A stretch of DNA of 64,000 nt from Candidatus Omnitrophota bacterium (GCA_021735445.1 JAIPHA010000003.1:903-64902), one strand, 5' to 3'; shown: positions 6,341 through 48,340, counted from the first letter of the stretch. Numbers and translations: made by a program. The notes: generated by a model from the letters alone, not told the origin.

Positions 6341-7353
6341 TTATTGTTTTAAAAAAAGGCACAGAACAAAAAGACATCGATAATTTATTAAAAAAGGTAA
6401 AAAGTTTAGGGCTTAAGCCAATGGTTTCCCAAGGGCAAGAAAGGACAATTATCGGAGTAATCGGCCCGGAAGATGTGATTCGCTTTCAGCCACTTGAGGC
6501 TTATCCCGGTGTAGATAAAGTAATGCCGGTGTTGGCGCCTTATAAGCTGGTTTCCAGAGAATTTAAGCAACAAGATAGTGTAGTTAAAGTAAAGGACTCG
6601 CTTGAGTTTGGTTCAGAAAAAATAAATATTGTTGCCGGGCCCTGTTCAATTGAAACAAAGGCGCAGCTTCAAGAAATAGCCGGTAAGATTAAGGATTCGG
6701 GGGCTTCTTTGATTCGCGGAGGAGCTTTTAAGCCAAGGACTTCTCCTTATAGTTTTCAGGGTTTAGGCGAAGAAGGGTTAAAAATTTTACAGGATGTTTC
6801 CAACCAGTTTGGCATAGCAGCTGTTACCGAAGTTATGGATACAAGAGATGTCGAGCTTGTTGCCCGTTATGCGGATGTGCTCCAAATAGGCGCCCGGAAT
6901 ATGCAGAATTTTAATTTGCTAAAAGAAGTAGGCCAGACTAAAAAGCCGATTATTTTAAAAAGAGGGTTAAGCGCTACCGTAAAAGAACTTTTGATGAGCG
7001 CAGAGTATATCTTATCCGAAGGTAATTTTAACGTAATTCTCTGCGAAAGGGGAATTAGGACTTTTAGCGAATTTACCCGTAATACTTTGGATATAAGCGC
7101 TGTGCCGGTTATTAAAATGTGTTCTCATTTGCCGGTCATCGTTGACCCTTCTCATGCTGCCGGTAAGTGGGGTTTAGTTAACCCCTTAAGCAAGGCAGCC
7201 GTGGCAGCCGGAGCCGACGGGCTTTTGGTTGAGGTGCATCCTAATCCTAAAGAAGCTTTAAGTGATGGCCCTCAGCAGTTATTGCCGGAAAATTTTGCAA
7301 TTTTGATGAAGGAATTAAAGCAGGTAGCTGAATCGGTGGGAAGAGAATTATAA
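6337..7353 (+). CDS. aroF: 3-deoxy-7-phosphoheptulonate (DAHP) synthase, type I-beta, with an N-terminal ferredoxin-like regulatory domain
   Basis: 338 aa with GPCSIE, KPRTSPYSFQGLG and VDPSHA motifs; ATGA overlap with hisC. Confidence 0.88.
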   Translation: MIIVLKKGTEQKDIDNLLKKVKSLGLKPMVSQGQERTIIGVIGPEDVIRFQPLEAYPGVDKVMPVLAPYKLVSREFKQQDSVVKVKDSLEFGSEKINIVAGPCSIETKAQLQEIAGKIKDSGASLIRGGAFKPRTSPYSFQGLGEEGLKILQDVSNQFGIAAVTEVMDTRDVELVARYADVLQIGARNMQNFNLLKEVGQTKKPIILKRGLSATVKELLMSAEYILSEGNFNVILCERGIRTFSEFTRNTLDISAVPVIKMCSHLPVIVDPSHAAGKWGLVNPLSKAAVAAGADGLLVEVHPNPKEALSDGPQQLLPENFAILMKELKQVAESVGREL

Positions 7354-7402
7354 GTAATAAGTAATAAGTCATAGGTCATATGACTTATGGACTTATGACA
7401 TA
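7354..7402. repeat. Heptamer-periodic array in palindromic arrangement (gtaataa gtaataa gtcatag gtcatat / gacttat ggactta tgacata)
   Basis: The 7-nt register was read directly, with the symmetry centre at catatg near 7380. It fills the aroF-tyrA spacer. Confidence 0.75.
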
Positions 7403-7407
7403 ATGTT

Positions 7408-10728: not shown

Positions 10729-11316
10729 ATGAAGAAAAAAAGTTCAACAAGAGAATGGATTGAATCAATAGTAGTTGCCGCGCTTTTAGTCGTAGTTTTA
10801 AAAACATTTTTTTTCCAAATGTATAAGATTCCTACTACTTCAATGGTTCCTACTCTTAAGCCTAAAGATAAGATATTTGTAAGCAAGTTAAGCTATGGGC
10901 CGAAGATGCCTTTTAATTTAGGCCGGCTGCCTGGATTCGCTGATCCGGAGAGAGGAGATGTGATAGTTTTTATACCGCCTCAAGAGGTAAAACAACCTTG
11001 GTATAGAAGAAAACCATATATAAAAAGAGTTGTTGGCTTACCCGGGGAGACTATCGAAATAAATAAAGGAAATATTCAGATTAACGGCGAGGAAGTTATT
11101 ATGCCGGAAGTTGCGGCTTTTTTTTATTATAACCAAGGCGAATACGCAAGAACAGGCAAAAAAGTAGTTGTTCCGGAGAAAAAATATTTTTGTTTGGGAG
11201 ATAATAGCATTAGTTCCAAGGATAGCCGTTACTGGGGTTTTGTCGATAAAGAGCAAATTATCGGAGAAGCAATTTTTATCTGGTGGCCGCCAAAAAGGAT
11301 CGGGATGATAGAATGA
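10729..11316 (+). CDS. lepB: Signal peptidase I
   Basis: N-terminal TM helix, catalytic Ser in the IPTTSMVPTL region, and GDNSISSKDSRYWGFV box E. Confidence 0.9.
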   Translation: MKKKSSTREWIESIVVAALLVVVLKTFFFQMYKIPTTSMVPTLKPKDKIFVSKLSYGPKMPFNLGRLPGFADPERGDVIVFIPPQEVKQPWYRRKPYIKRVVGLPGETIEINKGNIQINGEEVIMPEVAAFFYYNQGEYARTGKKVVVPEKKYFCLGDNSISSKDSRYWGFVDKEQIIGEAIFIWWPPKRIGMIE

Positions 11317-11633
11317 TTAAAAGTCCAACGTCTGAAGTCCAAAGTCTGAAGTCAATAAAGAATATTGGGTTATTGTTAGTGATCGGTTTGTTTTTAGCCG
11401 GTTGCGTCACAACTCAGGAATATGTCTATGAAGATGATGTTTTCAGAAAGAAGAGCGAGGTTTTAGACGAAAATCAAATTAAAGAAAAAAAGAAAGAGTG
11501 GATAGGCTCCTATTTAAAAGAAGATAGTTTGCCTAAACAGTGCCCAGTGTGCCGGAGAAGATATCAAATTTCTTTAGAAAAATGCCCTTATGATGGTACT
11601 GAGTTAGAGGAAATAGCAGAGGATAAACTCTGA
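11313..11633 (+). CDS. Hypothetical lipoprotein with a C-terminal CxxC...CxxxG zinc-ribbon-like motif
   Basis: Lipobox LFLAGC. The ATG at 11313 overlaps the lepB stop (ATGA), whereas the ORF-track start at 11283 lies inside lepB. The N-terminal 13 codons are encoded by a heptamer array. Confidence 0.45.
   Translation: MIKSPTSEVQSLKSIKNIGLLLVIGLFLAGCVTTQEYVYEDDVFRKKSEVLDENQIKEKKKEWIGSYLKEDSLPKQCPVCRRRYQISLEKCPYDGTELEEIAEDKL
11323..11353. repeat. Heptamer array gtccaac gtctgaa gtccaaa gtctgaa gtc
   Basis: The 7-nt register was read directly. It lies at the lepB/lipoprotein junction and is translated as SPTSEVQSLKS. Confidence 0.8.
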
Positions 11634-11682
11634 ATCCCAAATATTAAACTTTAAATAAACTCAAAGCTAGGGGGTAACTAAT

Positions 11683-12234
11683 ATGAGTTTTGCCGATAAA
11701 ATTAGCTCGATAAGAATAATTCTTATTCCTGTTTTTGTGTCTTTGCTTATTTATTCTGAAACTCACCCGGCTATGAGATATTTTGCTGTGGCAGTTTTTG
11801 TTTTAGCAGTTTTAAGTGATTTTTTTGACGGGATGGTAGCCAGGATAAAGAAAGAAAAATCTGAATTAGGCCAGATTATCGATCCGTTAGCAGACAAACT
11901 CCTTCTTCTAACTGCCTTTATAACATTGTTGCTTTTAAAAGAATATCCTATGTATTTATGGCTGGTTTTAATTGTGGTAAGCAGGGATTTGATTATATCG
12001 TTTGGTTTCGCAATTTTAAAAATGCTCAAAATAGAAATAGAAATTTCTCCTTCATTTTGGGGAAAATTCACAACCTTTTCTCAAATGATAACTATTTTTT
12101 GGATTTTATTAAAAGTACCTTATCACTTTTATATCTCGCTGGTGGCCGCAGCTTTTACATTAATATCCGGTTTAGATTATTTTTTACGGGGGGTAAGAGC
12201 ATTAAATGCTAAAATCAATCCTTCTTCTCGCTAG
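11683..12234 (+). CDS. pgsA: CDP-diacylglycerol--glycerol-3-phosphate 3-phosphatidyltransferase (CDP-alcohol phosphatidyltransferase family)
   Basis: The DFFDGMVAR...G...DPLADK signature of CDP-alcohol phosphatidyltransferases; polytopic membrane protein. Confidence 0.85.
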   Translation: MSFADKISSIRIILIPVFVSLLIYSETHPAMRYFAVAVFVLAVLSDFFDGMVARIKKEKSELGQIIDPLADKLLLLTAFITLLLLKEYPMYLWLVLIVVSRDLIISFGFAILKMLKIEIEISPSFWGKFTTFSQMITIFWILLKVPYHFYISLVAAAFTLISGLDYFLRGVRALNAKINPSSR

Positions 12235-14018: not shown

Positions 14019-15431
14019 ATGAAAAAAATAATCATCACTTTAATTTTAACGGGTTGCTTTATCCAAACCGGTTACTCTGCCAGAGCGGTAGGGCTGGAGG
14101 AGGCAACCGTAAAGGTCGCTGAAGATGTCGGTAAATCGGTTGTGTCGATAAGTTCTGTGATTAAGGAAAAAGTTGGCACTCAGTTTTATTTTGGGTCTCC
14201 TTTTGAAGGAGAGACTGATGACCCTTTCCAAAAGTTTTTCGAAGATTTTTTCGAAAGATCTCCCGAACGGGAATATGAAAGAATGGGGCTGGGCAGCGGT
14301 GTAATTATTAAAAAAGACGGTTATATCCTTACTAATGCGCATGTGGTTTCTAAAGCTGAAGATGTAGTAGTTAAATTGTCAGATGGCAGGGAGTTTGACG
14401 CCGAGGTAGCCGGAGTCGACCCTAAAAGCGATTTAGCTGTGATAAAGATAGATGCCGATGACCTTCCTGTTTCTGATTTAGGAGATTCATCTGATTTAAA
14501 AATAGGAAATTGGGTAGTTGCAATTGGAAACCCTTTTGGTTTTGCGATTGAAAACCCTGAACCAACCGTTACTGTCGGAGTAGTTAGCGCACTGCAGAGA
14601 TATCTACCGGCTTTGGGAGACCGGAGGATTGGCTATGATGGTTTAATCCAGACCGATGCCGCAATTAATCCCGGCAATAGCGGAGGGCCGCTTGTTAATT
14701 TAAAAGGGGAAGTGGTAGGGATAAACGTAGCTATTCTTACCCGTACCGGAGGTTATCAAGGCCTTGGTTTTGCGATTCCGATAAATAAAGCTAAAAAAAT
14801 AATCGACAAGCTTATAAAAGGCCAGGAAGTATTATACGGATGGTTAGGGGTAAGCATTCAGGATTTAAACCAGGATTTGCGCAACTATTTTGGCATAAAG
14901 AAAAAAGAAGGGGTGATAATTGTTAAAGTTTACCAAGATTCTCCGGCTAAAAAAGCCGGCTTAAAAGAAGGAGATTTGATTTTAACTTATAATCAAAAAT
15001 CAGTAAAAACCACCCGGGATTTAGTAAGAATGGTCACCGATAGCGAGGTCGGCCAAAAGGCGAATTTAGTAATTTTGCGGAATGGAAAGGAAAAAAATAT
15101 CGATATAGAAGTTGGTAAAAGGCCCGAAGATGTTAGAAGGCTTAAGCAGTTAACCAACCAAGATAAAGCTAATTTTCGGGGAATGTCAGTTAAAAACCTG
15201 GATTCTTATCTTAAGCAAAAGCTAGGGGTTAAGCAGAATTCAGGAGTTGTTGTTATTGAGTTAGAAGATGATTCTCCTGCCGAGGCTAGTGGTTTGCAGC
15301 GTGGGGATTTAATCGAAGAGATCGAAAACAAAGATATAAAGAATATCCAGAACTTTAAAGAAGTTACGGATTCAGTCAAGGGCAGTTGTTTAATTAAGAC
15401 CAACAGAGGCTATATAGTCCTTAAAGAATAG
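14019..15431 (+). CDS. htrA: HtrA/DegP-family periplasmic serine protease with two PDZ domains
   Basis: Signal peptide, the His/Asp/Ser triad (TNAHV, DLAVIK, GNSGGPL) and two PDZ-like repeats. Confidence 0.9.
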   Translation: MKKIIITLILTGCFIQTGYSARAVGLEEATVKVAEDVGKSVVSISSVIKEKVGTQFYFGSPFEGETDDPFQKFFEDFFERSPEREYERMGLGSGVIIKKDGYILTNAHVVSKAEDVVVKLSDGREFDAEVAGVDPKSDLAVIKIDADDLPVSDLGDSSDLKIGNWVVAIGNPFGFAIENPEPTVTVGVVSALQRYLPALGDRRIGYDGLIQTDAAINPGNSGGPLVNLKGEVVGINVAILTRTGGYQGLGFAIPINKAKKIIDKLIKGQEVLYGWLGVSIQDLNQDLRNYFGIKKKEGVIIVKVYQDSPAKKAGLKEGDLILTYNQKSVKTTRDLVRMVTDSEVGQKANLVILRNGKEKNIDIEVGKRPEDVRRLKQLTNQDKANFRGMSVKNLDSYLKQKLGVKQNSGVVVIELEDDSPAEASGLQRGDLIEEIENKDIKNIQNFKEVTDSVKGSCLIKTNRGYIVLKE

Positions 15432-15918: not shown

Positions 15919-18580
15919 ATTACGCCAAGAATATATAGATTTTTTTAAAGAAAAAAACCATAAATTTTTTCCTTCGGATAGTTTGGTACCCGGCGATGCG
16001 TCGGTTCTTTTTACTTCAGCCGGCATGAACCGCTTTAAGCCTTATTTCTTAGGCGAAGTTAAAGGAGTAGGTTCTGCGGTATCTTGTCAACGATGTTTGC
16101 GGACCGGCGATATCGAAAGAGTCGGCAAGACTCCTTATCATCATACTTTTTTTGAGATGCTAGGTAATTTTTCCTTTGGGGATTACTTTAAGAAAGAAGC
16201 GATTGAGATGGCCTGGGAGTTTTTGGTTGAAAAGTTAAGGATTAATAAGGAAAATCTTTGGGTTTCTGTATATAAAAATGACCAGGAATCTTTTGATATC
16301 TGGAAAGATAAGATAGGAATTCCGGTTGATAAAATCGTAAAGTTTGGCCAAAGCGAAAATTTTTGGCCGGCTAATGTTATCGACGCCGGCCCCTGCGGAC
16401 CCTGCGGCCCCTGCGCCGAGATTTTTTTTGACCGGGGTAAAAACAAAGGGTGCCAGAAAGATTCTTGCAATCCCTCTTGTGGTTGCGCTAGATTTGTCGA
16501 AATTTGGAATCTTGTTTTCACTCAGTTTGACCGGCAGCCGGATGGAAGCCTTAAGGCATTGCCACAGAAAAATATCGATACCGGCATGGGATTGGAAAGA
16601 ATGGCTTCAGTTTTGCAAAATAAAGATTCTAATTTTGAAATCGATATACTGGCTCCGGCTTGCGCTAAGGTAAAAGAAATTTTAGGATTGTCAGCTGATT
16701 TTAATAAAGATTATTTAGTTAATTCTATAGTTGACCATGCCAGAGCTGTTATCTTTTCGGTAGCAGACGGAGTTTATCCTTCTAATGAAGAGCGCGGTTA
16801 TGTGGTCCGTAAGTTGTTAAGAAAAGCTTTGTGGGCTGCTAATCTTATAGGCTATAAAAGGGCGTTTATTTATCAATTAATACCTTTGTTTGTTGAGTTG
16901 ATGCAGGGGGCTTATCCTTTTATTGCGGAAAAAGCGCAGATAGTAGAAAAAGTGGTAAAGGCAGAAGAGGAGAAATTCATATTAACCCTTGATGAAGGTA
17001 AAAGTAAACTTAAGGAATACCTGGATCAGCTAAAAAAAGAAAAGAAAAAAATATTATCGGCTGATAAACTTTTTTTTCTTTATGATACCTACGGATTCCC
17101 TTTTGAATTGAGTGAAGCTGCTGCTGGGGAATTTGGGGCGGAGATAGATAAAAAAGGGGCAATTAAGCTTTTAGCCAAACAAAAAGAACGTTCCCGGGCC
17201 GGAAGCAAATTTTCTCCGGAGATATTTAAAAAAGGTTGCCCTTTGTTGGCTGAAAAAGAGGCTACTCAATTTACCGGATACGAAAACTGTGAAATTTCTG
17301 CTAAGATAACTGATATTTTTCCCTTAAAAGGCACAAAAGTCAATTGGGAAGATAAACGAGAATGCCTTGAAAAAGGGCAAAAGGGGGTAGTGATTTTAGA
17401 TAAAACTCCTTTTTATACTGAATCCGGCGGCCAGCTTTCCGACCGGGGAATTATTAAAACAAATCAAGGTAAATTTTATGTTAAAAATGCTTATAGGATA
17501 GGGGCCGAATCCGTTGCGCTTCATCAAGGCGAGGTTATAGAGGGCGTAATTAAAGAAGAGAAAGCAAGGGCAAGGGTAGACAACAAAAGGAGAAAAGCGT
17601 TATCCCGGGCCCATACCGCAACCCATCTCCTCCAGGCATCTTTACGGGAAGTTTTGGGAGAACACGTAAGCCAGCAGGGTTCGTTGGTTGATGAAGACCG
17701 TCTTCGTTTTGATTTTACCCACTTTAAAGGGTTGGATTTTTTTCAAATAGAAAAGATTGAAAATTTAGTAAATTTTTATATTTTAAAAGCAGATAAGGTT
17801 TGTAAAGAGAATTTATCTTTTCAAACAGCTAAGGAAAAAGGCGCTTTGGCGTTTTTTAAAGAAAAATATGACAATGAAGTAAGAATGGTATCTATATCAG
17901 ATTATAGCAAGGAATTATGCGGCGGCACACACCTTGATAATAGTTCAGAGATAGCGGGTTTTATGATAGTTTCCGAAGGCTCGGTAAGCAGCGGAATAAG
18001 AAGGATTGAGGCGGTAGTCGGCAGCAAATTTTACCAGGCCTTTAAAGATCAAAAGAATAAACTGATTGAGCTAGCTAAAATGCTTAAATCTAGTACCGCT
18101 AAGATTAAACCGGCCTTAGAAAAAGAATTAAAAAGTTATAAAGATTGCAAGAGCAGAGTAGTAAAATTAGAAAAAGAGAAAGTATCGGGCATTGCCAAAA
18201 AGTTAATTGACAAGCACCTAGAGCAGGCTGCCGGAAAAAATTTATTAATTTATGATTTTACAGAAATTAATAGTCTCGATTTAAATTATTCGAATTTTTT
18301 TGATTTAGCTGATTTGCTTAAGGATAAATTAGATTCTTTTTTTGCTTTTTTTATTGGCAAACAAAACAATAAATTGAGATTTTTATCTTTTTGTTCAAAA
18401 AAATTAAATGACCAGGGAATAAGTTGTAAAGATTTTATAGACAGCGTTAAGGATGATCTGTCCTTAAAAGGCGGGGGGACTGATAAGCTGGTTCAGGGAG
18501 TAGTTGCCAAAAAAGAGGCAGGCTTAACGCTTAAAATTAAAAGTTATTTTGTGAGGTTTTTAAACAATGAGAGTAATTAG
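15905..18580 (+). CDS. alaS: Alanine--tRNA ligase
   Basis: 891 aa with class II core motifs, GPCGPC-type zinc region, HTATHLL editing domain and a C-terminal DHHA1-like region. Confidence 0.97.
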   Translation: MKTDKLRQEYIDFFKEKNHKFFPSDSLVPGDASVLFTSAGMNRFKPYFLGEVKGVGSAVSCQRCLRTGDIERVGKTPYHHTFFEMLGNFSFGDYFKKEAIEMAWEFLVEKLRINKENLWVSVYKNDQESFDIWKDKIGIPVDKIVKFGQSENFWPANVIDAGPCGPCGPCAEIFFDRGKNKGCQKDSCNPSCGCARFVEIWNLVFTQFDRQPDGSLKALPQKNIDTGMGLERMASVLQNKDSNFEIDILAPACAKVKEILGLSADFNKDYLVNSIVDHARAVIFSVADGVYPSNEERGYVVRKLLRKALWAANLIGYKRAFIYQLIPLFVELMQGAYPFIAEKAQIVEKVVKAEEEKFILTLDEGKSKLKEYLDQLKKEKKKILSADKLFFLYDTYGFPFELSEAAAGEFGAEIDKKGAIKLLAKQKERSRAGSKFSPEIFKKGCPLLAEKEATQFTGYENCEISAKITDIFPLKGTKVNWEDKRECLEKGQKGVVILDKTPFYTESGGQLSDRGIIKTNQGKFYVKNAYRIGAESVALHQGEVIEGVIKEEKARARVDNKRRKALSRAHTATHLLQASLREVLGEHVSQQGSLVDEDRLRFDFTHFKGLDFFQIEKIENLVNFYILKADKVCKENLSFQTAKEKGALAFFKEKYDNEVRMVSISDYSKELCGGTHLDNSSEIAGFMIVSEGSVSSGIRRIEAVVGSKFYQAFKDQKNKLIELAKMLKSSTAKIKPALEKELKSYKDCKSRVVKLEKEKVSGIAKKLIDKHLEQAAGKNLLIYDFTEINSLDLNYSNFFDLADLLKDKLDSFFAFFIGKQNNKLRFLSFCSKKLNDQGISCKDFIDSVKDDLSLKGGGTDKLVQGVVAKKEAGLTLKIKSYFVRFLNNESN

Positions 18581-20434: not shown

Positions 20435-20437
20435 AAA

Positions 20438-20451
20438 GTCCAAAGTCCTAT
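20438..20451. repeat. Heptamer pair gtccaaa gtcctat at the left edge of the hisB-hisH insert
   Basis: Read directly. The inverted partner gactttagac lies at 20792-20801 (reverse complement gtctaaagtc). Confidence 0.65.
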
Positions 20452-20491
20452 GTTGGATGTATAATTCAGTAGATGTGTTTACAAATACTCA

Positions 20492-20700
20492 AGAAACAAA
20501 ATTTTTTCGCACTGGTATGATTTTTTCTCTAAGTTTTAGCTGGAAACACAGAAAAATGCCTAAAAATCTCCTCCCAGCGCTTCGCGGCTCGTCGATGCTT
20601 CGATAATACTCAGCATCGACCCTGAGCGAAGTCGAATGGGTCGATTTTTTTAACGGCATTTTACTGTTAAAATCATAGAGCGCTCAAAAATTTGTTTTTT
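20492..20700. repeat. Long imperfect palindrome (~210 nt; MITE-like insert or structured RNA) between hisB and hisH
   Basis: Nested inverted repeats: 20492-20512 with 20678-20697, 20549-20568 with 20643-20666, cttcgc 20580-85 with gcgaag 20626-31, and tcgatgct 20592-99 with agcatcga 20612-19. Confidence 0.7.
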
Positions 20701-20791
20701 ATAACTTCGTTTCTTTTGTTTGTCAACATTAGCTGTGAATAGTACATGTTGGAAAAATAATTAAGAAAGTTTTTATAAAATATAAAAAGAT

Positions 20792-20801
20792 GACTTTAGA
20801 C
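20792..20801. repeat. Inverted heptamer-family motif gactttagac at the right edge of the hisB-hisH insert
   Basis: The reverse complement gtctaaagtc matches gtccaaagtc at 20438-20447 in 9 of 10 positions. Confidence 0.6.
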
Positions 20802-20809
20802 TAAGTATT

Positions 20810-21442
20810 ATGATAGTAATTATTGACTATGGGATGGGTAATTTAGAAAGCGTAAAAAATGCTGTTTTATTTTTGGGGAAGGAAGCAGTTGTTACCGCTT
20901 CACCCGAAAGGCTACAATCTGCCAAAAAAATAATTTTTCCCGGGGTGGGTCATTTTGCCCAAGCCGTCAAGCAGTTAGAATCAAGAAGGTTGATTGATCC
21001 TCTAAAGGAAAAGATAAAAGAGGGAGTGCCTTTTTTGGGGATTTGTTTAGGGATGCATCTGTTGTTTGAAAAAAGCAGTGAAGCGCAAGGTGTTTCGGGC
21101 CTGGGGGTTATAAAAGGAAAAGTATCAAGATTTGACGATAACGGCTTGATTGTACCGCATATGGGTTGGAATCAAATTAAAAAAGTCCAAAGTCCAAAGT
21201 CCAAAGTCCAAAGTCAAGATGAAATGGTAGATTTGTTTGAAGGGATAGAAGATGGCAGTTATTTTTATTTTGCTCACTCTTATTTTTGCCAACCCCGCGA
21301 GAAAGTTGCCTTAGCGACTACCGATTACGGCCAAGAGTTTGTTTCTGCCCTGGGGAAGAAAAATATTTGGGGGATTCAGTTCCATCCGGAGAAAAGCCAA
21401 AAAAAAGGCTTAAAAGTGTTAGAAAATTTTTTAAAGGCTTAG
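20810..21442 (+). CDS. hisH: Imidazole glycerol phosphate synthase, glutamine amidotransferase subunit
   Basis: Class I GATase triad context (GICLGMHLL, PHMGWN, FHPEKS). It contains a ~10-aa insertion encoded by a heptamer array. Confidence 0.92.
   Translation: MIVIIDYGMGNLESVKNAVLFLGKEAVVTASPERLQSAKKIIFPGVGHFAQAVKQLESRRLIDPLKEKIKEGVPFLGICLGMHLLFEKSSEAQGVSGLGVIKGKVSRFDDNGLIVPHMGWNQIKKVQSPKSKVQSQDEMVDLFEGIEDGSYFYFAHSYFCQPREKVALATTDYGQEFVSALGKKNIWGIQFHPEKSQKKGLKVLENFLKA
21185..21215 (+). repeat. Perfect tandem (GTCCAAA)x4 plus gtc inside the hisH coding sequence
   Basis: gtccaaagtccaaagtccaaagtccaaagtc read directly; translated in frame as VQSPKSKVQS. Confidence 0.95.
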
Positions 21443-24385: not shown

Positions 24386-24844
24386 ATGAAACAACTCAAA
24401 GGAAAATTTGACGGTAGAGGTAAAAAAATAGCAATAGTGGTTTCTCGTTTTAATGAAGTAATCAGCAAGCGGCTGCTGGAAGGCTGTATGGATACTTTAA
24501 AAAAATGCGGCACAGATGATAAAAATATTTCTCTCTACTGGTCTCCGGGGTCTTTTGAAATTCCCCAAATTTTATCAAAATTACAGGTCAACAAATTTGA
24601 TGCAGTAATAACCTTAGGCGCGGTTATAAGGGGCGATACTCCTCATTTTGAATATATATCATCCGAGGTAACAAAAGGTATAGCTAAAATAGCCCAAGAC
24701 AAAAAAATTCCTATAGCCTTTGGAATAATTACAGCTGATACTATCGAACAGGCAACGGAAAGATCCGGGACCAAACAAGGGAATAAAGGTTCTGATGCAG
24801 CTTTTTCAGCTCTTGAAATGGCAAATTTATACAGCCAACTATAA
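24386..24844 (+). CDS. ribH: 6,7-dimethyl-8-ribityllumazine synthase
   Basis: IAIVVSRFNE, PGSFEIP and GAVIRGDTPHFEY motifs. The ATG at 24386 follows the GGAGGG RBS. Confidence 0.95.
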   Translation: MKQLKGKFDGRGKKIAIVVSRFNEVISKRLLEGCMDTLKKCGTDDKNISLYWSPGSFEIPQILSKLQVNKFDAVITLGAVIRGDTPHFEYISSEVTKGIAKIAQDKKIPIAFGIITADTIEQATERSGTKQGNKGSDAAFSALEMANLYSQL

Positions 24845-24847
24845 AAA

Positions 24848-24878
24848 GTCCTAGGTCCAACGTCCAATGTCCAAAGTC
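24848..24878. repeat. Heptamer array gtcctag gtccaac gtccaat gtccaaa gtc (left arm)
   Basis: The 7-nt register was read directly. The inverted partner array lies at 24915-24945 across an AT-only 36-nt spacer. Confidence 0.85.
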
Positions 24879-24914
24879 AAAAAATAATCTTTATTATTTA
24901 TTTTTAAAAATAAT

Positions 24915-24945
24915 GACTTAGGACTTCGGACATAAGACTATGGAC
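24915..24945. repeat. Inverted heptamer array gac ttaggac ttcggac ataagac tatggac (right arm)
   Basis: The reverse complement reads gtccata gtcttat gtccgaa gtcctaa gtc, the same GTCNNNN register as the left arm. Confidence 0.85.
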
Positions 24946-24970
24946 TAGTTAATTAACTTTCGTTCTAAAT

Positions 24971-25387
24971 ATGAGATCTCGATCCAAAGCACGTGATATT
25001 GCTCTCTGCCTCCTTTACCAGATAGAGTTATCTAAAATCACTCCCCAGGATGCCCTCCTAAGCAGCTTAGCTGCAACTATAGAAGATGAGTCAATAGTTA
25101 TTTTTTTTTCCCGATTAATTAAAGGAGTAGACTCTAATAAAGGGAAAATCGATTCTATAATCAAAAAATATGCAAAAAATTGGGAGATTAGCCGAATGGC
25201 AGTTATCGATAGAAATATTTTGAGGTTAGCAGTTTTTGAGCTATTTTTTTTAGACGATATCCCTCCCAAAGTTTCAATCAATGAAGGAATTGAATTAGCC
25301 AAGCGTTATGGTGATTTGGATTCAGCCCGTTTTGTAAATGGTATTTTAGATAAGATCTATAAAACCGAAAAATCAATAAAAAAATAA
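24971..25387 (+). CDS. nusB: Transcription antitermination factor NusB
   Basis: 138 aa with the ARDIALCLLYQ start and the AVIDRNILRLAVFEL / INEGIELAKRYG motifs; rib-linked, as in many bacteria. Confidence 0.9.
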   Translation: MRSRSKARDIALCLLYQIELSKITPQDALLSSLAATIEDESIVIFFSRLIKGVDSNKGKIDSIIKKYAKNWEISRMAVIDRNILRLAVFELFFLDDIPPKVSINEGIELAKRYGDLDSARFVNGILDKIYKTEKSIKK

Positions 25388-40450: not shown

Positions 40451-41947
40451 ATGGCTAAAAAAGAACAAGTAGGATTGTATTTGGGCGTAAATTCTGTAGC
40501 AGCTTCTTTGGTAGAAGCAAAAAAGCTGGTGTCTTCTTCTTATGCCGAGGTGTCTTCTGACCAGGATTCAGTTGAAAAACTCCAAGAAAATGTGAGAATT
40601 CAGGCTTCTTTGAATAAAATAATGCGGGAAGCGCATATCGAAAGTAAAAAAATCCATTTGTCTGCTGCCGATAAAAATTTTATTTTCCGTTACCTGGAAT
40701 TACCTTTAATGAGAAAAAAGGATATAGAATCAGCTTTATTTTTTGAAATAGAAAAATATATTCCTTTTAAGACCAAAGAGCTGATTTGGGATTATCAATA
40801 TGTCCAGTCCAGAAGAGACAAAAAAACAAAAGTTTCTTTTGTGGGGATGAGAGAAAGTAATTACAAACAAATCGGAGAGATACTTTCACAATTAGATTTA
40901 TCTTTGCAATCCCTGGAGCCTGCGTCTATTTCTTTGGCTCGTTTGGTTAAATCTAATAAAAATTTTTCTAAAGATAAAGACTTTGTTATTTTAGATGTAA
41001 GCTATCATGAAGGTTACCTTACTTTTTTCCAGGATGATTTACCCGTTTTTAACCGCCACTTTGATGTTTCGAAAACAGAAGGTAAGTTTGATAAAGATAA
41101 GTTTGTTGAAGCGGTTAATTATTCATTCCAATATTTTCGAAGAGAATACAAAAAGGCCGATATCGGGAAAATTATAGCTGTTGGTAATGTTTTAGATGAA
41201 GAAGTAATAGGTTCTTTAGAGGAAACTCTTCGCTTAGAAGTAAAAAAAGTGTCTTCTTTAGATTTAATTCCTTTCCAAAAAGAACTTTCCGTTGAAGAGG
41301 TCAAATCCTCCGGCGTTGCCTTAAGAAAAACTTTAGCTTATAAATTTGATCCCATTTTAGAAGAAAGGGAGGAAACAGCTGCAACCGAAACAGTCAAGGT
41401 TGTAGATGTTACAGCTGGTTGGCGTTATGGATTATTAGTTGGATTGTTGATTGCCGGCCTCTTAGGTTCTTATTTTTTATGGTCCCGGTTGAATCAGCGG
41501 GTGTGGGCTAAGAAAGAACGCATAATTACCGAAGAAAAGAGCATAGAGGTAACCGATAGCCTGGTAGGCCTCAGCAAGCAGGCAGTAGAAGAAAAGGTAG
41601 CCGAGAAAAAAGAACAAATCGAACATCTAAAAGGCAATGAATCTTCTGATTTAGAAATTTGGCCTTTTTTAGATTTTTTAAGACAAAAAGAAAATATCCC
41701 TCAACAGCTTTGGCTGGAAAGATTAAACATTGAGCAGGCAGGAAACGAATACCGGGGTGAAATGTCAGGGTATGTTTATTTTCAGGATAGTGTAAAAGAA
41801 AGCACTGCGGTAGATGAATTTGTAAGGAACCTAAAAAATGATAGAAGCATTGGCAATATCTTTTCCAGAATTCAGTTAAATTCTGTAAGAAAAGAAAAAT
41901 TAAATAATTATTCTGTAACAAATTTTAAAATTGATTTTAAAAAATAA
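40451..41947 (+). CDS. PilM-like actin-fold protein fused to a PilN-like transmembrane/periplasmic region
   Basis: N-terminal ~320 aa are PilM-like (GLYLGVNSVAASLVE...), followed by a single TM helix (WRYGLLVGLLIAGLLGSYFLW) and a ~150-aa tail. It lies upstream of pilO/Q/B/C. Confidence 0.6.
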   Translation: MAKKEQVGLYLGVNSVAASLVEAKKLVSSSYAEVSSDQDSVEKLQENVRIQASLNKIMREAHIESKKIHLSAADKNFIFRYLELPLMRKKDIESALFFEIEKYIPFKTKELIWDYQYVQSRRDKKTKVSFVGMRESNYKQIGEILSQLDLSLQSLEPASISLARLVKSNKNFSKDKDFVILDVSYHEGYLTFFQDDLPVFNRHFDVSKTEGKFDKDKFVEAVNYSFQYFRREYKKADIGKIIAVGNVLDEEVIGSLEETLRLEVKKVSSLDLIPFQKELSVEEVKSSGVALRKTLAYKFDPILEEREETAATETVKVVDVTAGWRYGLLVGLLIAGLLGSYFLWSRLNQRVWAKKERIITEEKSIEVTDSLVGLSKQAVEEKVAEKKEQIEHLKGNESSDLEIWPFLDFLRQKENIPQQLWLERLNIEQAGNEYRGEMSGYVYFQDSVKESTAVDEFVRNLKNDRSIGNIFSRIQLNSVRKEKLNNYSVTNFKIDFKK

Positions 41948-41958
41948 AAGGAATTGAT

Positions 41959-42459
41959 ATGAGTGACCTTACCCAAATGGATGTAAAAGACCTTCTTTAT
42001 TATAAAAATACTCTGGCAACAATAGCTATAGTGGTTATTTTTGGATTGGTTGCTAAGAATATCGTCGCTGATTATAACCAAAAGATGGCGTCTTTAGATG
42101 AAGAAAAGAAGAAAAACCAAGAATATAAATGGGCGGTGGAGGAGTATAATAGCTTAAAATCCCGTTATGATAGTTTAGCTGAAAAATATTTCCAGAAAGA
42201 TAGCATGGCTTTAAAGAATTACGTTGAAAGGGCCGCAGTTAATCAAGGTATTCAAATTAGTTCTTTGCGGCCAACCCGGGAAGAAGAAGGTTTTTATTGG
42301 GTGGATAAAATAGCTATAGAGATTGACGCTTCTTACTATAACTTTGTCCAATTCGTAAAAGATTTAGAAAGTAAGAAAATAGAAGTGGAAAAAGCACAGA
42401 TGACTCAAAAGGGCGATCAAGTAAGTGTGCAATTATTTATAAAAACGATTAGTTTATGA
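41959..42459 (+). CDS. PilO/GspM-like pilus alignment protein
   Basis: N-terminal TM helix, a coiled coil, then a ferredoxin-like C-terminal region (YYNFVQFVKDLES...VSVQLFIKT), plus operon position. Confidence 0.5.
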   Translation: MSDLTQMDVKDLLYYKNTLATIAIVVIFGLVAKNIVADYNQKMASLDEEKKKNQEYKWAVEEYNSLKSRYDSLAEKYFQKDSMALKNYVERAAVNQGIQISSLRPTREEEGFYWVDKIAIEIDASYYNFVQFVKDLESKKIEVEKAQMTQKGDQVSVQLFIKTISL

Positions 42460-42815
42460 TGAAAACACGATTGAGCCTATTTTTATTTTTTATTTTTTCG
42501 GTTACTGCCGGTTATGCTCAAACCGATTACAAGAACCCTTTTGAATCGGGGCTGCCTCAGGAAGCAGTTGAGGCCGAGACTACTGAATCGACCCAAGAGG
42601 TAGGAGGCAGCGTAGGGAGCTTGCCGGAAGGGATTACTATAGAAGGGGTTTTATGGGGCAGTGAAATGCCGCAGGCGATAATCAATGGAGGGGTATACAA
42701 GCAGGGTGATAAATTAAAAGATAATAAAAGTGTTTCTATTTTTAATATCAAGGATAATACAGTATTCTTTTCATATCAAGGTAAGATTTTTAAAAAAAAG
42801 CCTACAAAACAATAG
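42456..42815 (+). CDS. Secreted PilP/GspC-HR-like small protein
   Basis: Signal peptide and a C-terminal beta-rich block (ITIEGVLWGSEMPQAIINGGVYKQGDKL...) resembling secretin-binding PilP/GspC HR domains; immediately upstream of the secretin gene. Confidence 0.4.
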   Translation: MMKTRLSLFLFFIFSVTAGYAQTDYKNPFESGLPQEAVEAETTESTQEVGGSVGSLPEGITIEGVLWGSEMPQAIINGGVYKQGDKLKDNKSVSIFNIKDNTVFFSYQGKIFKKKPTKQ

Positions 42816-42833
42816 AATAAGGGAGGCGGTAAG

Positions 42834-44384
42834 ATGAAAAAAATAGTATTGATAATATTAGTTGCTCTGGTTTTTATTCCGGGTAAAGTTTTCGCCAAAG
42901 AAAGTAGTTATGACAGTTATTTTTTCGATAGCGAGAAAAGCACTGGCTTAATTTCAGACGATATTTTTGGAGATTATCTTCTATTTAGCAAGGAGCAAAC
43001 AGTTTCTTTGGATTTAGAAGGGGCAAAGTTAGTGAATGTGTTAAAAATGCTTTCTCAGCAGACAGGGCTTAATTTTATCTCGACCGATGCAGTGCGTGGC
43101 AGAGAAATGACCCTTTATATTCAAAATGTGCCCTTGAAAAAGGCAATGGATATAATTTTTCAATCTAACAATTTAAGTTATGATTTTTACCCTGAAGCCG
43201 AGATGTTTGTGATAAAAGAAATGGGCAAGCCCAGCCTTGAGCTTAAAACCAAGGTATACCATCTAAAATACGCCCGGGTTTTAAGTTCGAACATGCAAAA
43301 AGAAATTGACCAAATTCTAAAAGAGATAAAAGAAGGCGGCGCCGCCGGCGGAGGCAGCAGCGGAGGCAGCGGAGCAGCAAGAACCGGGATAAAAAAAGTA
43401 ATCGAGCAAGCATTGAGCGAGTCAGGAAGAGTTGTCGTAAACCAGGCTACCAACTCGATAGTTGTAATCGATGTTCCGTCACAGTTTCCTGTTATCGATG
43501 ATCTTGTTGCCAGGCTGGACACCCCTCCCCAGAAGATTATGATTGAAGTTGAAATTCTCGATGTAAGCAAGGATGTAATCGATAAAATAGGGATTAAACA
43601 TGATGGAAGCGTACGAAGCGGGATTTCCGGTTTATTTACGCCTTTTCCTAATGTTTTTAACCCGAATAAGGGGCCGGTTCCCTGGCGGACTTCAACCATT
43701 GACCTTAGCGATATTAATATAGTTGCTCAGCTTTATAAGCAAGATATGACTGCTAAAATTCTTGCCCGGCCGAGGATTATAACCCTTAACAACGAAACCG
43801 CCGAGATTGATGTTGTAACCGATGAAGTAATTGGTACTAAAATAGAGTATGACGATGACGGGAATATCCAATCAAGCGAAGCTAAAAGAATTTCCGATGT
43901 AGGAGGTTATAAAGGTTCCGGTGTAACTTTAAGAGTCACCCCTCAGGTTAGCCCTTTGACTAATGAGATTACCTTAATAGTATACCCTTCGGTAGTAGAT
44001 ACTACCGCTTCAACTTTTACAGACGAACAGGGCAATACCTATAGAAATATCGAAGACAGAAGCACCCGTTCGGTAGTCAGGCTTGATGAAGGAGAAACTT
44101 TGCTTTTAGGCGGCCTGATAAAAAATGATGAAAAAGCAACCGTAACTAAAGTCCCTTTTTTAGGGGATATTCCTTTATTGGGAGCTTTATTCCGTCATAA
44201 AGACACTACCGGAAGCGGGGATAGAGAGTTACTTGTGTTTTTGACCCCAAGAATTATTAAAGGAAAAAGCTTTAGAGGCAAGACCGATAAAAGGGCCTTT
44301 CTTAGCCGGGAACAGTCAAATCCGGAAAAAGAATTTGCTGTCGACAATACTTTAAACAGATACATGCTGAAAAGAAGAGATTGA
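42834..44384 (+). CDS. pilQ: Secretin (PilQ/GspD family)
   Basis: N-terminal STN-like domain, a Gly/Ser linker, and a C-terminal secretin core with VPFLGDIPLLGALFRHK. Confidence 0.88.
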   Translation: MKKIVLIILVALVFIPGKVFAKESSYDSYFFDSEKSTGLISDDIFGDYLLFSKEQTVSLDLEGAKLVNVLKMLSQQTGLNFISTDAVRGREMTLYIQNVPLKKAMDIIFQSNNLSYDFYPEAEMFVIKEMGKPSLELKTKVYHLKYARVLSSNMQKEIDQILKEIKEGGAAGGGSSGGSGAARTGIKKVIEQALSESGRVVVNQATNSIVVIDVPSQFPVIDDLVARLDTPPQKIMIEVEILDVSKDVIDKIGIKHDGSVRSGISGLFTPFPNVFNPNKGPVPWRTSTIDLSDINIVAQLYKQDMTAKILARPRIITLNNETAEIDVVTDEVIGTKIEYDDDGNIQSSEAKRISDVGGYKGSGVTLRVTPQVSPLTNEITLIVYPSVVDTTASTFTDEQGNTYRNIEDRSTRSVVRLDEGETLLLGGLIKNDEKATVTKVPFLGDIPLLGALFRHKDTTGSGDRELLVFLTPRIIKGKSFRGKTDKRAFLSREQSNPEKEFAVDNTLNRYMLKRRD

Positions 44385-44387
44385 TAT

Positions 44388-46103
44388 ATGGCCAGATATA
44401 AGAGATTAGGAGATGTGCTAATATCCGAAGGCATGATTACCGATGCCCAACTTGGCGAAGCTTTAAAAAAGCAGGAAGGCGGCGGCGGGAAGCTGGGTGA
44501 GTTATTGGTAAAACTGGAATATGTCGATGAAAAGCAAATCGCTGTTGCATTAAGCAAGCAGTTAGGCATTGCCTATATTTCCAAAACTTCCGGCAAACTT
44601 AAACCGGTTTCCGACCAGAACTTAGAAGAGTTAATCCCGCATGATTTTGCTATAAAGAATGTAGTTTTGCCTTTATCCCGCAGCCTGAACTCGATAACTG
44701 TAGTTATGGCTGACCCCCTGGATTTGATTTTAATCGATAATATTAAGAAAATGACCGGTTGTGAGGTTAATATTGTTGTTTCAATTAGGCAGGATATCTT
44801 AGAAGCAATCGAAAAATTTTATGGAAAGGAAAAAATGCTTCGTTCTGCCATTGAAGCCAGCAAGGATGATGAAAGCGAAGGCCTTGGCATAAAAGAGATA
44901 TCATCAGAAGAAACCGATTTAAGTTTAGATAAAATGGTGGCGCAAGCCGAGGAAGCGCCGGTTGTTAAATTAGTAGATTTAATTATTAGGCAAGCTATCG
45001 AAGAAGATGCTTCCGATATTCATATTGAACCGCATCATAATGATCTTAAATTACGTTATCGGATAGATGGTGTGCTTTATGATATGCCGTCACCCTCGGT
45101 GGCTTTATATTTGCCGATAGTTTCAAGAATTAAAATACTTTCCCGGATGGATATAGCTGAGAAACGCCTGCCCCAAGATGGCGGTTTTATGGTAAAAATT
45201 AATAAAAGATTAATTGATTTAAGGGTTTCGATGCTTCCTACTATCTATGGGGAAAAGGCAGTTTTAAGAATTTTAGATAAAAGCAGAGTCCCTCTTGATT
45301 TAGCTAAATTAGGGTTTTTCCCTGAAGAATTAGAGTTAATTCGCAAAGGGATAAAATCTTCCTATGGCCTGGTCCTTCTTACCGGCCCTACTGGTTCCGG
45401 TAAGTCAACAACTCTTTATGCGTCATTAGCCGAAATAAAATCCGCTAAAACCAATATTATTACCGCTGAAGATCCGGTCGAGTATAGGATTGAAGGCATT
45501 AACCAGGTTCAGGTGAAGCCAGATATTGGGCTTACTTTCGCTAATGCTTTAAAGAGCTTTTTGCGCCAGGATCCGGATATAATTTTGGTGGGAGAAACCA
45601 GGGATTTAGAAACTGCCGAGATGACTATTCGAGCCGCTTTAACCGGCCATTTAGTTTTTTCTACTTTGCATACAAATGACGCTCCTTCAACTATCAACCG
45701 TTTGGTAGATATCGGTTTACCAGCCTATTTGGTAACGGCATCATTAAAATTGATTATTGCACAAAGGTTGGCTAGAAAATTATGCCCTCATTGCAAGGAA
45801 CCTTACGAAATCGATAAGGTTGATTTACCGGAAGGAGTTGAATTAGATTCCCAAGTTATTTATCGGCCGAAGGGGTGTGATAAATGTAATTCTATCGGCT
45901 ATAAAGGAAGGACGATAATTTCGGAAGTTATATTGCTTGATGAAGAGACTAAACGTTTAATTCACCAAGGGGCTACTCCTCCTCAGATTATGGAATCGGC
46001 TAAAAAGAAAGGATCTTATACTTTGCTGGAAAGCGGGTTAAAAAGGGTTACCGAGGGGATAACCTCTCTGGAAGAAGTAATTTCCATAGCAGCAGCCACT
46101 TAA
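44388..46103 (+). CDS. pilB: GspE/PilB-family assembly ATPase with an N-terminal MshEN domain
   Basis: RLGDVLISEGMITDAQLGEALKKQ N-domain, GPTGSGKSTT Walker A, GETRD and a tetracysteine motif (CPHC...CDKC). Confidence 0.92.
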   Translation: MARYKRLGDVLISEGMITDAQLGEALKKQEGGGGKLGELLVKLEYVDEKQIAVALSKQLGIAYISKTSGKLKPVSDQNLEELIPHDFAIKNVVLPLSRSLNSITVVMADPLDLILIDNIKKMTGCEVNIVVSIRQDILEAIEKFYGKEKMLRSAIEASKDDESEGLGIKEISSEETDLSLDKMVAQAEEAPVVKLVDLIIRQAIEEDASDIHIEPHHNDLKLRYRIDGVLYDMPSPSVALYLPIVSRIKILSRMDIAEKRLPQDGGFMVKINKRLIDLRVSMLPTIYGEKAVLRILDKSRVPLDLAKLGFFPEELELIRKGIKSSYGLVLLTGPTGSGKSTTLYASLAEIKSAKTNIITAEDPVEYRIEGINQVQVKPDIGLTFANALKSFLRQDPDIILVGETRDLETAEMTIRAALTGHLVFSTLHTNDAPSTINRLVDIGLPAYLVTASLKLIIAQRLARKLCPHCKEPYEIDKVDLPEGVELDSQVIYRPKGCDKCNSIGYKGRTIISEVILLDEETKRLIHQGATPPQIMESAKKKGSYTLLESGLKRVTEGITSLEEVISIAAAT

Positions 46104-46116
46104 AACAAATTATTTT

Positions 46117-47343: not shown

Positions 47344-47352
47344 CCTTATCTA

Positions 47353-47381
47353 TTGACATTAGAGATTAAATATGCTATATA
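47353..47381 (+). promoter_or_regulatory. Sigma-70-type promoter of the major pilin gene (TTGACA-17 nt-TGc-TATATA)
   Basis: TTGACA at 47353-47358, extended -10 tgcTATATA at 47373-47381. This predicts a ~120-nt leader before the ATG at 47509. Confidence 0.55.
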
Positions 47382-47508
47382 AAAATTGGGTAAGGTTTAT
47401 AGAGATGGGTTTATTGGTGCAAGCTGGGCCATTGGAAAAAGTATTAATAGTAGGTACAGTCAGGTATAGTCCAGCGGATGCCTGATAGTTATTTGAAAGG
47501 AGGTTTAG

Positions 47509-47901
47509 ATGAGAAAAGGGTTTACCTTAATTGAGCTTATAGTCGTAGTTATTGTAATTGCGATTCTGGCTAGCTTTGCCGTGCCTCAGTATATAACGTC
47601 AATTGAGCGGGCTAAAAAAGCAAAGGCTGAAAATGCGTTAGGTATTATTGCTCAGGCAGAAAAGATGTATCGAGCCGAAAATGATACTTATGTAAATTTT
47701 GCGTCCGGGGCTGCTGACGCGACATTAGGGAGTTATGTGGAGCTTGATGAAGTAGATAATGATACTGATTGGAATTATCAAGTAACAGGCGCAACAACTA
47801 CCGCTTTTACTGCGACCGCGACAAGAAGCGGCGGAAGCAATAACGGAGAAACTGTTACCGTGGATCAATCCGGAAATTGGGGCGGCGATTTTACTCCTTG
47901 A
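47509..47901 (+). CDS. Type IV pilin / pseudopilin (probable major subunit)
   Basis: Prepilin leader MRKG|FTLIELIVVVIVIAILA with Glu+5; strong RBS (AAGGAGG); own promoter and a downstream hairpin. Confidence 0.88.
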   Translation: MRKGFTLIELIVVVIVIAILASFAVPQYITSIERAKKAKAENALGIIAQAEKMYRAENDTYVNFASGAADATLGSYVELDEVDNDTDWNYQVTGATTTAFTATATRSGGSNNGETVTVDQSGNWGGDFTP

Positions 47902-47933
47902 TTTTTTACTTAGATAAGCGAAAAAAATAATTT

Positions 47934-47960: not shown

Positions 47961-47966
47961 AATATT

Positions 47967-48338: not shown

Positions 48339-48340
48339 CT

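Follow-up and report, generated by a model that had tools for sequence, protein, structure and literature searches.

Organisation of the ribH-nusB spacer and the GTC heptamer family

Between ribH and nusB in an uncultured member of Candidatus Omnitrophota (Planctomycetes-Verrucomicrobia-Chlamydiae, or PVC, group), the intercistronic spacer (24845-24970) is occupied by two tandem arrays of heptanucleotide units that face each other across an A/T-rich loop, and further arrays of this kind are dispersed over the same 64,000-nt stretch of DNA. This whole stretch, hereafter the window, is 91% coding, almost entirely on the plus strand, with a non-coding fraction of 8.6%, and belongs to a genome of 37% GC. 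The closest match to its RibBA is found in the Omnitrophota metagenome-assembled genome (MAG) Tobar14m-G24, at 92% protein identity and ~89% DNA identity. Gene identities were taken from Pfam, and Rfam recovered only tRNAs in the window. The counts of the repeat family cover the window together with short strain contigs, that is, metagenome and MAG contigs that were found through exact-protein matches and whose coding DNA is 96-100% identical to the window; individual contigs and loci are cited by their L numbers.

The left arm of the ribH-nusB pair (24845-24878) reads AAAGTCC TAGGTCC AACGTCC AATGTCC AAAGTC and the right arm (24915-24945) reads GACTTAG GACTTCG GACATAA GACTATG GAC, with the nusB ATG (24971) lying 23-25 nt downstream of the right-arm end. 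The coordinates and sequence of both arrays had been reported in a first-pass annotation of this DNA and are reproduced here, as is its statement that the arms are only ~70% complementary (71% over 38 nt as measured), while the 'pure A/T' loop that it described has the length given but is interrupted by a single C (Table 1). A scan for GTC at a 7-nt register returns arrays of exactly five units at 11323-53, 21185-215, 24848-78 (plus strand), 24915-45 (minus strand) and 51436-66, along with two-unit remnants at 7368/7390, 20438/20792 and 51500; all the further sites named in the annotation hold GTC in this register. The GTC-core family is thus found at six loci within 64 kb. Its core is identical in 25/25 units and the remaining positions vary, the units of the arms doing so at 3-4 of 7 positions, and the arrays of the window measure 4.3-5.9 units. 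Two more heptamer families, ATAAGTM (7350-7402) and TTTTCTA (49459-49505), are also present.

A dispersed family with a conserved register, as had been claimed from the sequence, stands far above the expectation from shuffled DNA and does so only at a period of 7 nt. Five GTC arrays of at least five units were observed, against a mean of 0.00 (maximum 0) in 100 dinucleotide-preserving shuffles, and five of at least three units against a shuffle mean of 0.02; GTC runs of three or more units are absent at periods 5, 6, 8, 9 and 10. Lag-autocorrelation, which is agnostic to the unit and in which the TTTTCTA array surfaced, detects 4 strong arrays at period 7, where 20 shuffles yield 0, and 0-1 at periods 6 and 8-12; the arrays are found independently by Tandem Repeats Finder (TRF). 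A weak 'TTA' phase at 52495-52518 proved on inspection not to be an array.

Table 1. Positions of the heptamer arrays and of the elements directly associated with them in the window.
Feature	Position	Strand	Description
Compact inverted pair, aroF (DAHP synthase)-tyrA	7350-7402		ATAAGTA/ATAAGTC x4.4 facing GACTTAT-type units; overlaps stop codon; fold z -4.2
Solo five-unit GTC array in lipoprotein open reading frame (ORF) 11313-11633	11323-11353	+	Codons 4-14, signal-peptide n-region
Left-arm remnant, hisB-hisH pair	20435-20451	+	2 units; directly after hisB stop
Insertion resembling a miniature inverted-repeat transposable element (MITE), hisB-hisH loop	20459-20755		~297 nt; absent from L001; flanked by duplicated (A)TGTTGGA
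Right-arm remnant, hisB-hisH pair	20788-20804	-	2 units; shorter than strain L001 by 21 nt (3 units)
Perfect (AAAGTCC)x4.9 array in hisH (20810-21442)	21182-21215	+	Encodes KKVQSPKSKVQS, surface loop after GWNQ motif
Left arm, ribH-nusB pair	24845-24878	+	4 full AAAGTCC-type units and a partial one; directly after ribH stop (24842-24844)
Loop, ribH-nusB pair	24879-24914		36 nt, 35/36 A/T, lone C at 24889; loop in predicted fold
Right arm, ribH-nusB pair	24915-24948	-	Five GTC units on minus strand (plus strand: GGACTTN)
TTTTCTA x~6 array in ORF 49447-50238	49459-49505	+	Encodes signal-peptide hydrophobic core, M48-peptidase lipoprotein
Five-unit GTC array, divergent tRNA/transporter spacer (51197-51573)	51433-51466	+	Between minus-strand tRNA genes (ending 51426) and transporter gene (51574)
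Inverted partner of the 51433 array	51496-51513	-	2 units (GGACTTAGGACTT); pair fold z -2.6

Insertion sites in spacers and reading frames

The arrays had been placed at gene boundaries, and this holds for four of the seven loci, which lie in the small non-coding fraction and fill their intergenic spacers, three of these four spacers being bounded by a stop codon and the start codon that follows it. The other three loci are inside ORFs, two in lipoprotein signal peptides and one in a hisH loop; the placement is thus not general, since 11323-53 lies in a lipoprotein ORF and 21185-215 in the middle of hisH. The start of that lipoprotein ORF overlaps the upstream stop (ATGA) and its product begins MIKSPTSEVQSLKSIKNIG...LAGC; TRF assigns a 14-nt higher-order period to its repeat as well (11321-11353). 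More distant HisH proteins are 5-8 residues shorter at the KKVQSPKSKVQS loop, and the AAAGTCC unit, as can be read from the unit itself, is free of stop codons in all six frames. The property that the array sites share is sequence that tolerates insertion.

At the hisH array site, the gene for a 60%-identical HisH (L010 8030-8075) holds a degenerate A/G-rich repeat of ~8 nt, which may be an old, decayed repeat insertion in the same loop.

Strain alleles and turnover of the arrays

Among the strain contigs, the ribH-nusB spacer occurs as three alleles. The window shares with L003 an allele of four GTCCNNN units and a partial one facing NNNGGAC; L001, L002, L005 and L006 carry four GTTCNAC units and a partial one facing GTNGAAC; and L004, a contig in which a 14-nt higher-order period is seen again, carries AGATKGG x4.3 facing CAATCTN x4.4. 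From GTCC/GGAC to GTTC/GAAC, one core base differs in every unit of both arms and the layout of four units plus a partial one is unchanged. The flanks of these alleles are 97-100% identical as far as the stop and start codons; the spacers are 31-55% identical, and therefore unrelated between strains.

Comparable changes are seen at the other loci. The hisB-hisH spacer (20435-20809 in the window) forms a compact intact pair in L001, relative to which the window lacks one unit (7 nt) in the left arm and three units (exactly 21 nt) in the right arm and has gained ~297 nt in the loop; the comparison of strains that the first-pass annotation had called for thus reveals copy numbers that differ in 7-nt steps. 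In L001 and L002 the hisH array reads (CAAGTCA)2(CAAGTTA)2, with the AAGT phase retained and the flanks 100% identical, and in L178, L180, L181 and L183 the 11323 lipoprotein array reads AAAGTCCx3 TAAGTCCx2, with five units as in the window and the frame kept. The aroF-tyrA spacers of L092 and L093 are of almost equal length to that of the window and have only ~1.5 recognisable units. What is kept across strains is the 7-nt period, the ~4-5 units per arm and the inverted layout, and what changes, in concert, is the sequence of the unit. Arrays of ~4-5 units of 7 nt each (~31-35 nt) lengthen and shorten by whole steps of 7 nt, homogenisation of their units is concerted and extends to both arms of a pair, and their turnover far outpaces that of the flanking genes. 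The change is limited to sequence that is free of constraint. No further strain alleles emerged from a metagenome scan with RibH, which returned only relatives of at most 72% identity, and exact-protein look-ups near the 49459 locus, the 51436 locus and rplM returned only the window's own allele.

The history of the ribH-nusB alleles is further illuminated by L009, a relative at 89% average nucleotide identity, which bears the window allele at 98% identity between flanks of 85-93%. A tract of ~300 nt centred on the spacer (24712-25011 in the window) is 95-98% identical between the two and looks like a short recombination import, which suggests that the alleles are old and may have been moved by homologous recombination. 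Alternatively, selection on the whole spacer would account for the raised identity.

Two of the arrays lie in the 5' signal-peptide regions of lipoprotein genes, a position that would suit contingency repeats toggling these genes by frameshift, in the manner of the pentamer repeats that serve phase variation in the Neisseria opa leader. However, phase variation is unsupported, because the coding arrays that could be compared (hisH and 11323, in a small sample of strains) hold their unit number and open frame in all contigs. In addition, the units are imperfect and the same family occurs in hisH and in intergenic spacers, so that this use of the arrays is very unlikely. Next to the 11323 lipoprotein gene, L178 and L180 have ~175 nt extra (L178 1778-2000) before the CDP-alcohol phosphatidyltransferase gene, which the window (11634-11682) lacks.

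The ~297 nt gained in the hisB-hisH loop constitute a MITE-like insertion with imperfect terminal inverted repeats (TGTATAATTCA... and ...TGAATAGTACA) and, inside, a GC-rich hairpin followed by a T-run; it has no Rfam match and no second copy in the sequences gathered for the analysis. The possibility that the arrays are transposon footprints, built from 7-bp target duplications, was considered and set aside: the duplication at the insertion is 7 or 8 nt (ambiguous) and is out of register with the units.

Predicted hairpins at cistron junctions

All three ribH-nusB alleles are predicted to fold into long hairpins of -32, -36 and -53 kcal/mol, with z scores of -6.5, -5.8 and -6.1 against shuffles, and the remaining pairs give z scores between -2.6 and -4.2. 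The predicted stems consist of helices of 4-5 bp (GTCC:GGAC) with a small internal loop every 7 nt. The aroF-tyrA spacer (7354-7407, 54 nt) is predicted to form a hairpin over its full length.

Hairpins downstream of stop codons would be expected of ordinary intrinsic (Rho-independent) terminators at operon ends, but the first-pass annotation had argued against simple terminators, and rightly so. There is no U-run behind any pair in the window, and a scan for terminator-like structures does not rise above shuffles and does not call the arrays. Moreover, the stems are AT-rich and broken every 7 nt, the pairs sit between genes of one pathway or operon and solo arrays lie in ORFs, all of which makes a terminator function highly improbable.

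Heptamer arrays in relatives and phages

The breadth of the phenomenon was surveyed by scanning ~1.7 Mb of fetched loci for phased period-7 arrays, which gave 8 calls in the 64 kb of the window (one of them, 52495-52518, spurious) against 27 in the other 1.66 Mb. The arrays cluster in few lineages, and loci rich in them include L009, L011 and the Bacteroidia MAG L053. In L011, a MAG labelled Planctomycetia whose RibBA is 68% identical, 15 kb contain 12 TRF rows of period 7 or 14, and the ~300-nt ribD-mazG spacer (14100-14410) consists almost entirely of ~8 consecutive heptamer arrays with differing units (AAGGAAA, AAATTGC, ATTTAGC, GAAATGA, AGTCAGG, TCATAAT and TATNGAC). At the ribH stop, further relatives have arrays in units unrelated to those of the window: in L099, a 72%-identical relative, the stop is followed by an inverted TAGTATA pair in a layout of stop, array, loop, array and start, and in L104 and L118 arrays lie at the stop or run across it.

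An exact 20-mer of AAAGTCC repeats matched 22 contigs in the viral database IMG/VR, where fewer than one match would be expected by chance. The viral set was chosen by this probe; nearly all of its contigs have 54-67% GC and are dense in period-7 arrays of many units, mostly of 4.0-4.9 copies, and within individual phage contigs, L205, L207 and L189 among them, one family recurs at several junctions. Contig L195, a lambda-like phage head/tail module (terminase gpA, portal, S49 protease, major capsid protein E and tail tube), carries heptamer arrays or inverted pairs at nearly all of its stop-start junctions, and at 11944-12212 a tRNA-Met gene (12046-12119) lies within nested inverted pairs, the outer AGGCCGT/CGGCCTA and the inner AGTGATG/GTCACTT; the window pair at 51433/51496 likewise adjoins tRNA genes. 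The architecture of the window recurs in L197 (57% GC), where a stop codon is followed by GTCC... units (x5), a loop and GGACTTT units (x4.7). Outside a mask of ORFs with high third-position GC, which covers 65% of the sequence, lie 56/101 viral arrays, a lower bound since this crude mask over-calls coding sequence.

An octamer version of the probe matched 3 IMG/VR contigs, 7-fold fewer than the heptamer. A hexamer version matched at least 120, a control that is uninformative because repeats of period 6 keep the reading frame and are common in coding sequence, above all in MAGs of giant viruses. In the pooled TRF calls, period 7 has a second mode at 4-5 copies (73/190) and drops sharply above 5, whereas periods 6, 8 and 9 decay monotonically, and by hand count none of the perfect arrays listed for the IMG/VR contigs exceeds ~4.9 copies. 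Elsewhere in the IMG/VR set, at L189 4728-4933, a 28-copy array of TTTGGAC/GTTGGAC goes far over the usual ceiling of ~5 units.

Such a length distribution invites the idea of an array-writing process, dedicated or physically constrained, that produces, in a single event, a run of ~32-35 nt from whatever heptamer is local or templated, an idea that we regard as improbable. It might work by reiterative synthesis at stalled or broken ends, for example, and would be common to distant bacteria and act on their phages. The second length mode at period 7 only, the many perfect arrays at 4.1-4.9 copies with none longer in the hand count of IMG/VR contigs, the rarity of the octamer and the like architecture in a 37%-GC Omnitrophota genome and 54-67%-GC phage contigs all speak for a writing step. 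However, the stepwise 7- and 21-nt indels and the higher-order periods show ordinary slippage, a length mode could also arise from length-dependent expansion and contraction, and the viral set was itself picked with the AAAGTCC probe. We know of no candidate enzyme for such a step.

The relatives and phages bear equally on a periodic protein-binding origin, which the first-pass annotation had put forward. Two kinds of protein could be envisaged: the omega repressor of plasmid pSM19035, a ribbon-helix-helix (RHH) protein, reads contiguous 7-bp heptads, and HutP, an RNA-binding oligomer, reads triplets at 7-nt spacing. An invariant GTC with variable neighbours, in 4-5 contiguous units of both orientations and with a tight length mode, is what either might require, and S1, Csp and CsrA have been proposed for TAACTGA arrays (MacGregor, PMC4679880). 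Yet GTCC, GTTC or AGATKGG occupies the same spacer in strains with 97-100% identical flanks, ~8-13 unrelated units coexist in the 300-nt spacer of L011 and in single phage contigs, and arrays lie within ORFs and downstream of genes, not at promoters. Given this change of core among nearly identical strains and this mixture of unrelated units, sequence-specific binding is disfavoured and the proposal is unlikely to be right. Operators made of heptad iterons of the omega/RHH type were rejected as well on the side of the DNA, there being no single invariant heptad across strains and the arrays being off promoters.

Relationship to known repeat classes

The arrays of the window belong to the known class of heptameric tandem repeats, variously described as short tandemly repeated repetitive (STRR) elements or long simple sequence repeats (SSRs), with which they share the excess of 7-nt head-to-tail repetition, the dispersed unit family, the short and mainly intergenic arrays and the polymorphism between close relatives. 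A search limited to one library of papers found no report of heptamer arrays in Omnitrophota, and they are therefore a new member of the class, in a new phylum. According to Mrazek (2007), as cited in two later papers, heptanucleotide repeats outnumber other long SSRs in most genomes, and ~7 nt could be the segment that contacts the polymerase and so favours slippage (PMC4679880, PMC4692102). Since Xanthomonas, Beggiatoaceae, Bacteroidetes and Burkholderia have such arrays as well (PMC4692102, PMC4679880), it was too narrow to name STRR as the only analogue, apt as that analogy is.

The likeness to STRR lies in the 7-nt tandem units, the several dispersed families per genome, the mostly intergenic position and the inverted hairpin between co-transcribed genes. 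Work on STRR in cyanobacteria dates from ~1990, and the units of heterocystous species are CCCCAGT, TTGGTCA and CAACAGT, as opposed to AAAGTCC, ATAAGTM and TTTTCTA in the window, whose host belongs to Omnitrophota and not to the heterocystous cyanobacteria. Further differences are that the window arrays lie partly in protein-coding sequence and undergo allele replacement at the level of strains. STRR is reportedly found also within RNase P RNA, a functional gene, to go by the title of a study by Vioque in 1997 (cited in PMC2858038). Small dispersed repeat (SDR) elements are said by Elhai in 2008 to occur in heptamer repeats. Membership of STRR in the strict sense (STRR1-3, Nostocales) was rejected, as both units and phylum differ. 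Between hupS and hupL of cyanobacteria, STRR repeats of 7 bp form hairpins that have been suggested to stabilise the transcript or to couple translation (PMC2670836).

The GGGAATC repeats of Xanthomonas comprise ~180 dispersed intergenic arrays per genome, the majority of four units, with frequent convergent plus/minus pairs that are potential stem-loops, and their loci are shared by related species with highly variable length and sequence (Rehm et al., 2015, PMC4692102). In the dispersal of arrays of ~4 units, the facing pairs and the variability at shared loci, these repeats and GGGGAYT of Nostoc are like those described here, but their units are G-rich and read as G-quadruplex formers, which the units of the window, in a host of 37% GC, cannot be. 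The TAACTGA repeats of marine Beggiatoaceae, cyanobacteria and Bacteroidetes, in 2-6 copies, abut start or stop codons and occasionally lie at protein termini (MacGregor, 2015, PMC4679880). They too are heptamers at many loci by start and stop codons, some of them in ORFs, and one heptamer spans unrelated phyla, much as AAAGTCC recurs in unrelated high-GC phage contigs. On the other hand, TAACTGA sets are nearly all direct (one is inverted) and lie just upstream of starts, and they put stop codons in all frames, unlike AAAGTCC, which leaves all six open.

Finally, repetitive extragenic palindromes (REPs), bacterial interspersed mosaic elements (BIMEs) and the paired REPs known as REPINs, all of proteobacteria, resemble the present arrays as inverted doublets of ~100 nt that form hairpins in intercistronic and 3' regions, occur as dispersed families, have been proposed to protect mRNA 3' ends and are targets of insertion sequence (IS) or MITE insertion, to be compared with the MITE in the hisB-hisH loop. 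REP arms, however, are single sequence-conserved imperfect palindromes mobilised by REP-associated tyrosine transposases (RAYTs) (PMC3116915), and the arms in the window consist of 7-nt units in tandem, whose variable positions are free. Membership of the REP/REPIN group was accordingly rejected in spite of the doublet-hairpin geometry, the arms being tandem-periodic with 3-4 of 7 positions varying.

The resemblance nevertheless raises the possibility that the arrays or pairs are miniature mobile elements (REPIN/MITE-like), copied between permissive sites by an enzyme acting in trans, which would give rise to the dispersal of the family. The GTC core at six loci in 64 kb, the recurrence of one family at several junctions of single phage contigs (L205, L207, L189), the sharply bounded replacement of whole spacers and a pair size and position that resemble REPINs (PMC3116915) are all consistent with such copying. 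The arrays, however, have around them no conserved ends, terminal inverted repeats or target-site duplications; they show 7-nt-step indels inside and concerted unit change in situ between identical flanks; many unrelated units stand side by side; and a partial scan, of 16 window proteins, found no RAYT or IS200/IS605-like gene among them. On balance, we consider mobile elements an unlikely explanation.

Origin and maintenance of the arrays

The best joint explanation, to which we give about even credence, is that these are STRR-class arrays with slippage-type turnover that are retained at permissive sites and that, where they face each other, act as REP-like intercistronic hairpins. Turnover would occur by replication slippage (slipped-strand mispairing) together with template switching within and between repeats, and arrays would persist only at unconstrained sites, such as stop-to-start spacers, signal-peptide segments and a protein surface loop. 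An intercistronic RNA with two facing arrays of one family is predicted to fold into a long hairpin of 4-5-bp helices with internal loops every 7 nt. Such a hairpin, which would be neither a terminator nor a sequence-specific protein site, may protect the 3' end of the upstream cistron or direct its processing, similar to REP/BIME hairpins or the RNase III-site hairpins of phages, or it could bring stop and start together and thereby couple translation.

Replication slippage had been offered as an origin in the first-pass annotation too, and for turnover this is supported by the 7- and 21-nt indels, the 14-nt higher-order units and the A-A-B-B patterns; it falls short for the presence of one unit at six loci and for the stop at ~5 units. 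Several observations weigh against the favoured explanation. Slippage from random seeds leaves unaccounted for the GTC core at six loci in 64 kb and the dominance of a single family in individual phage contigs, and it does not predict a length mode of 4-5 copies that is lacking at periods 6, 8 and 9. The invariance of GTC (25/25) among free neighbours looks like constraint and not neutral decay. As for the hairpin, the variable arm positions pair at chance level (5/15 in the window and 7/15 in L001, by hand count), and for this reason covariation lends no support to the idea that pairing outside the shared core is under selection. Furthermore, whole spacers, loops included, differ by strain and L009 shares the window allele at 98%, to which old, recombining alleles fit at least as well as rapid change in situ.

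The favoured account thus leaves over the dispersal of the family to several loci, the preference for 7 nt, the ceiling of ~5 units and the invariance of GTC, and these leave room for a copy mechanism or for a process that writes arrays or constrains their size. That the period, the ceiling (~5 units, ~35 nt) and the layout of stop, array, loop, array and start are common to a 37%-GC Omnitrophota chromosome and to unrelated 54-67%-GC phages might even point to a conserved process or machine that writes such arrays or needs them at cistron junctions, whatever their unit sequence, in place of passive slippage. We hold this to be rather unlikely; the machine could take the form of burst-like reiterative synthesis at stalled ends or of a spacing device on the scale of the ribosome or an RNase.

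Neighbouring elements

In a cluster of pilus/type II secretion system (T2SS)-like genes (40451-48901), which has PilM- and T2SSF-like members, one gene (47509-47901) encodes a minor pilin of type IV that clears the Pfam threshold for ComP_DUS (42.6 bits against a cut-off of 27.3), which hints at DNA uptake in this Omnitrophota lineage. In Neisseria, DNA-uptake sequences (DUS) are often inverted pairs after genes, and the arrays could be imagined as DUS that are read by this pilin. Tandem 7-nt periodicity and multiple families, however, are not properties of DUS, and the idea founders on the lack of any enrichment of AAGTCC elsewhere than in the arrays (5 observed against ~10.7 expected); it can be given almost no credence. 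No DUS-like over-represented motif was found in the window.

At the end of the window, a block of ~30% GC with minus-strand genes (58551-64000) adjoins a tRNA gene (58551-58622). Its products are a large serine recombinase (58614-60101), a protein for rolling-circle replication of the Rep_1/HUH type (60485-61267) and one that resembles SpoVG; the block is probably an integrated mobile element, and no heptamer arrays were found in it. Two other tandem repeats are present in the window, CGGCCCCTG x3.2 within an 891-aa ORF (16387-16415) and TAATTAAC x3.6 between the first two ORFs (337-365).

Concluding remarks

The arrays add a new phylum, Omnitrophota, to an old repeat class. In practical terms, such arrays come at a cost in MAGs, where they break assemblies and mislead gene callers and terminator predictors. 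A natural series of strains separates what is kept, namely the period, the arms of ~4-5 units and the inverted layout, from the unit sequence, which is free, and there is evidence that arrays enter coding sequence only at permissive sites. The cistron-junction layout is found also in unrelated phages, and the strain and phage data together argue against sequence-specific binding, G-quadruplexes and terminators. Taken together, the strain series and its phage parallels place sharper constraints than before on hypotheses for how heptamer repeats arise and what they do.

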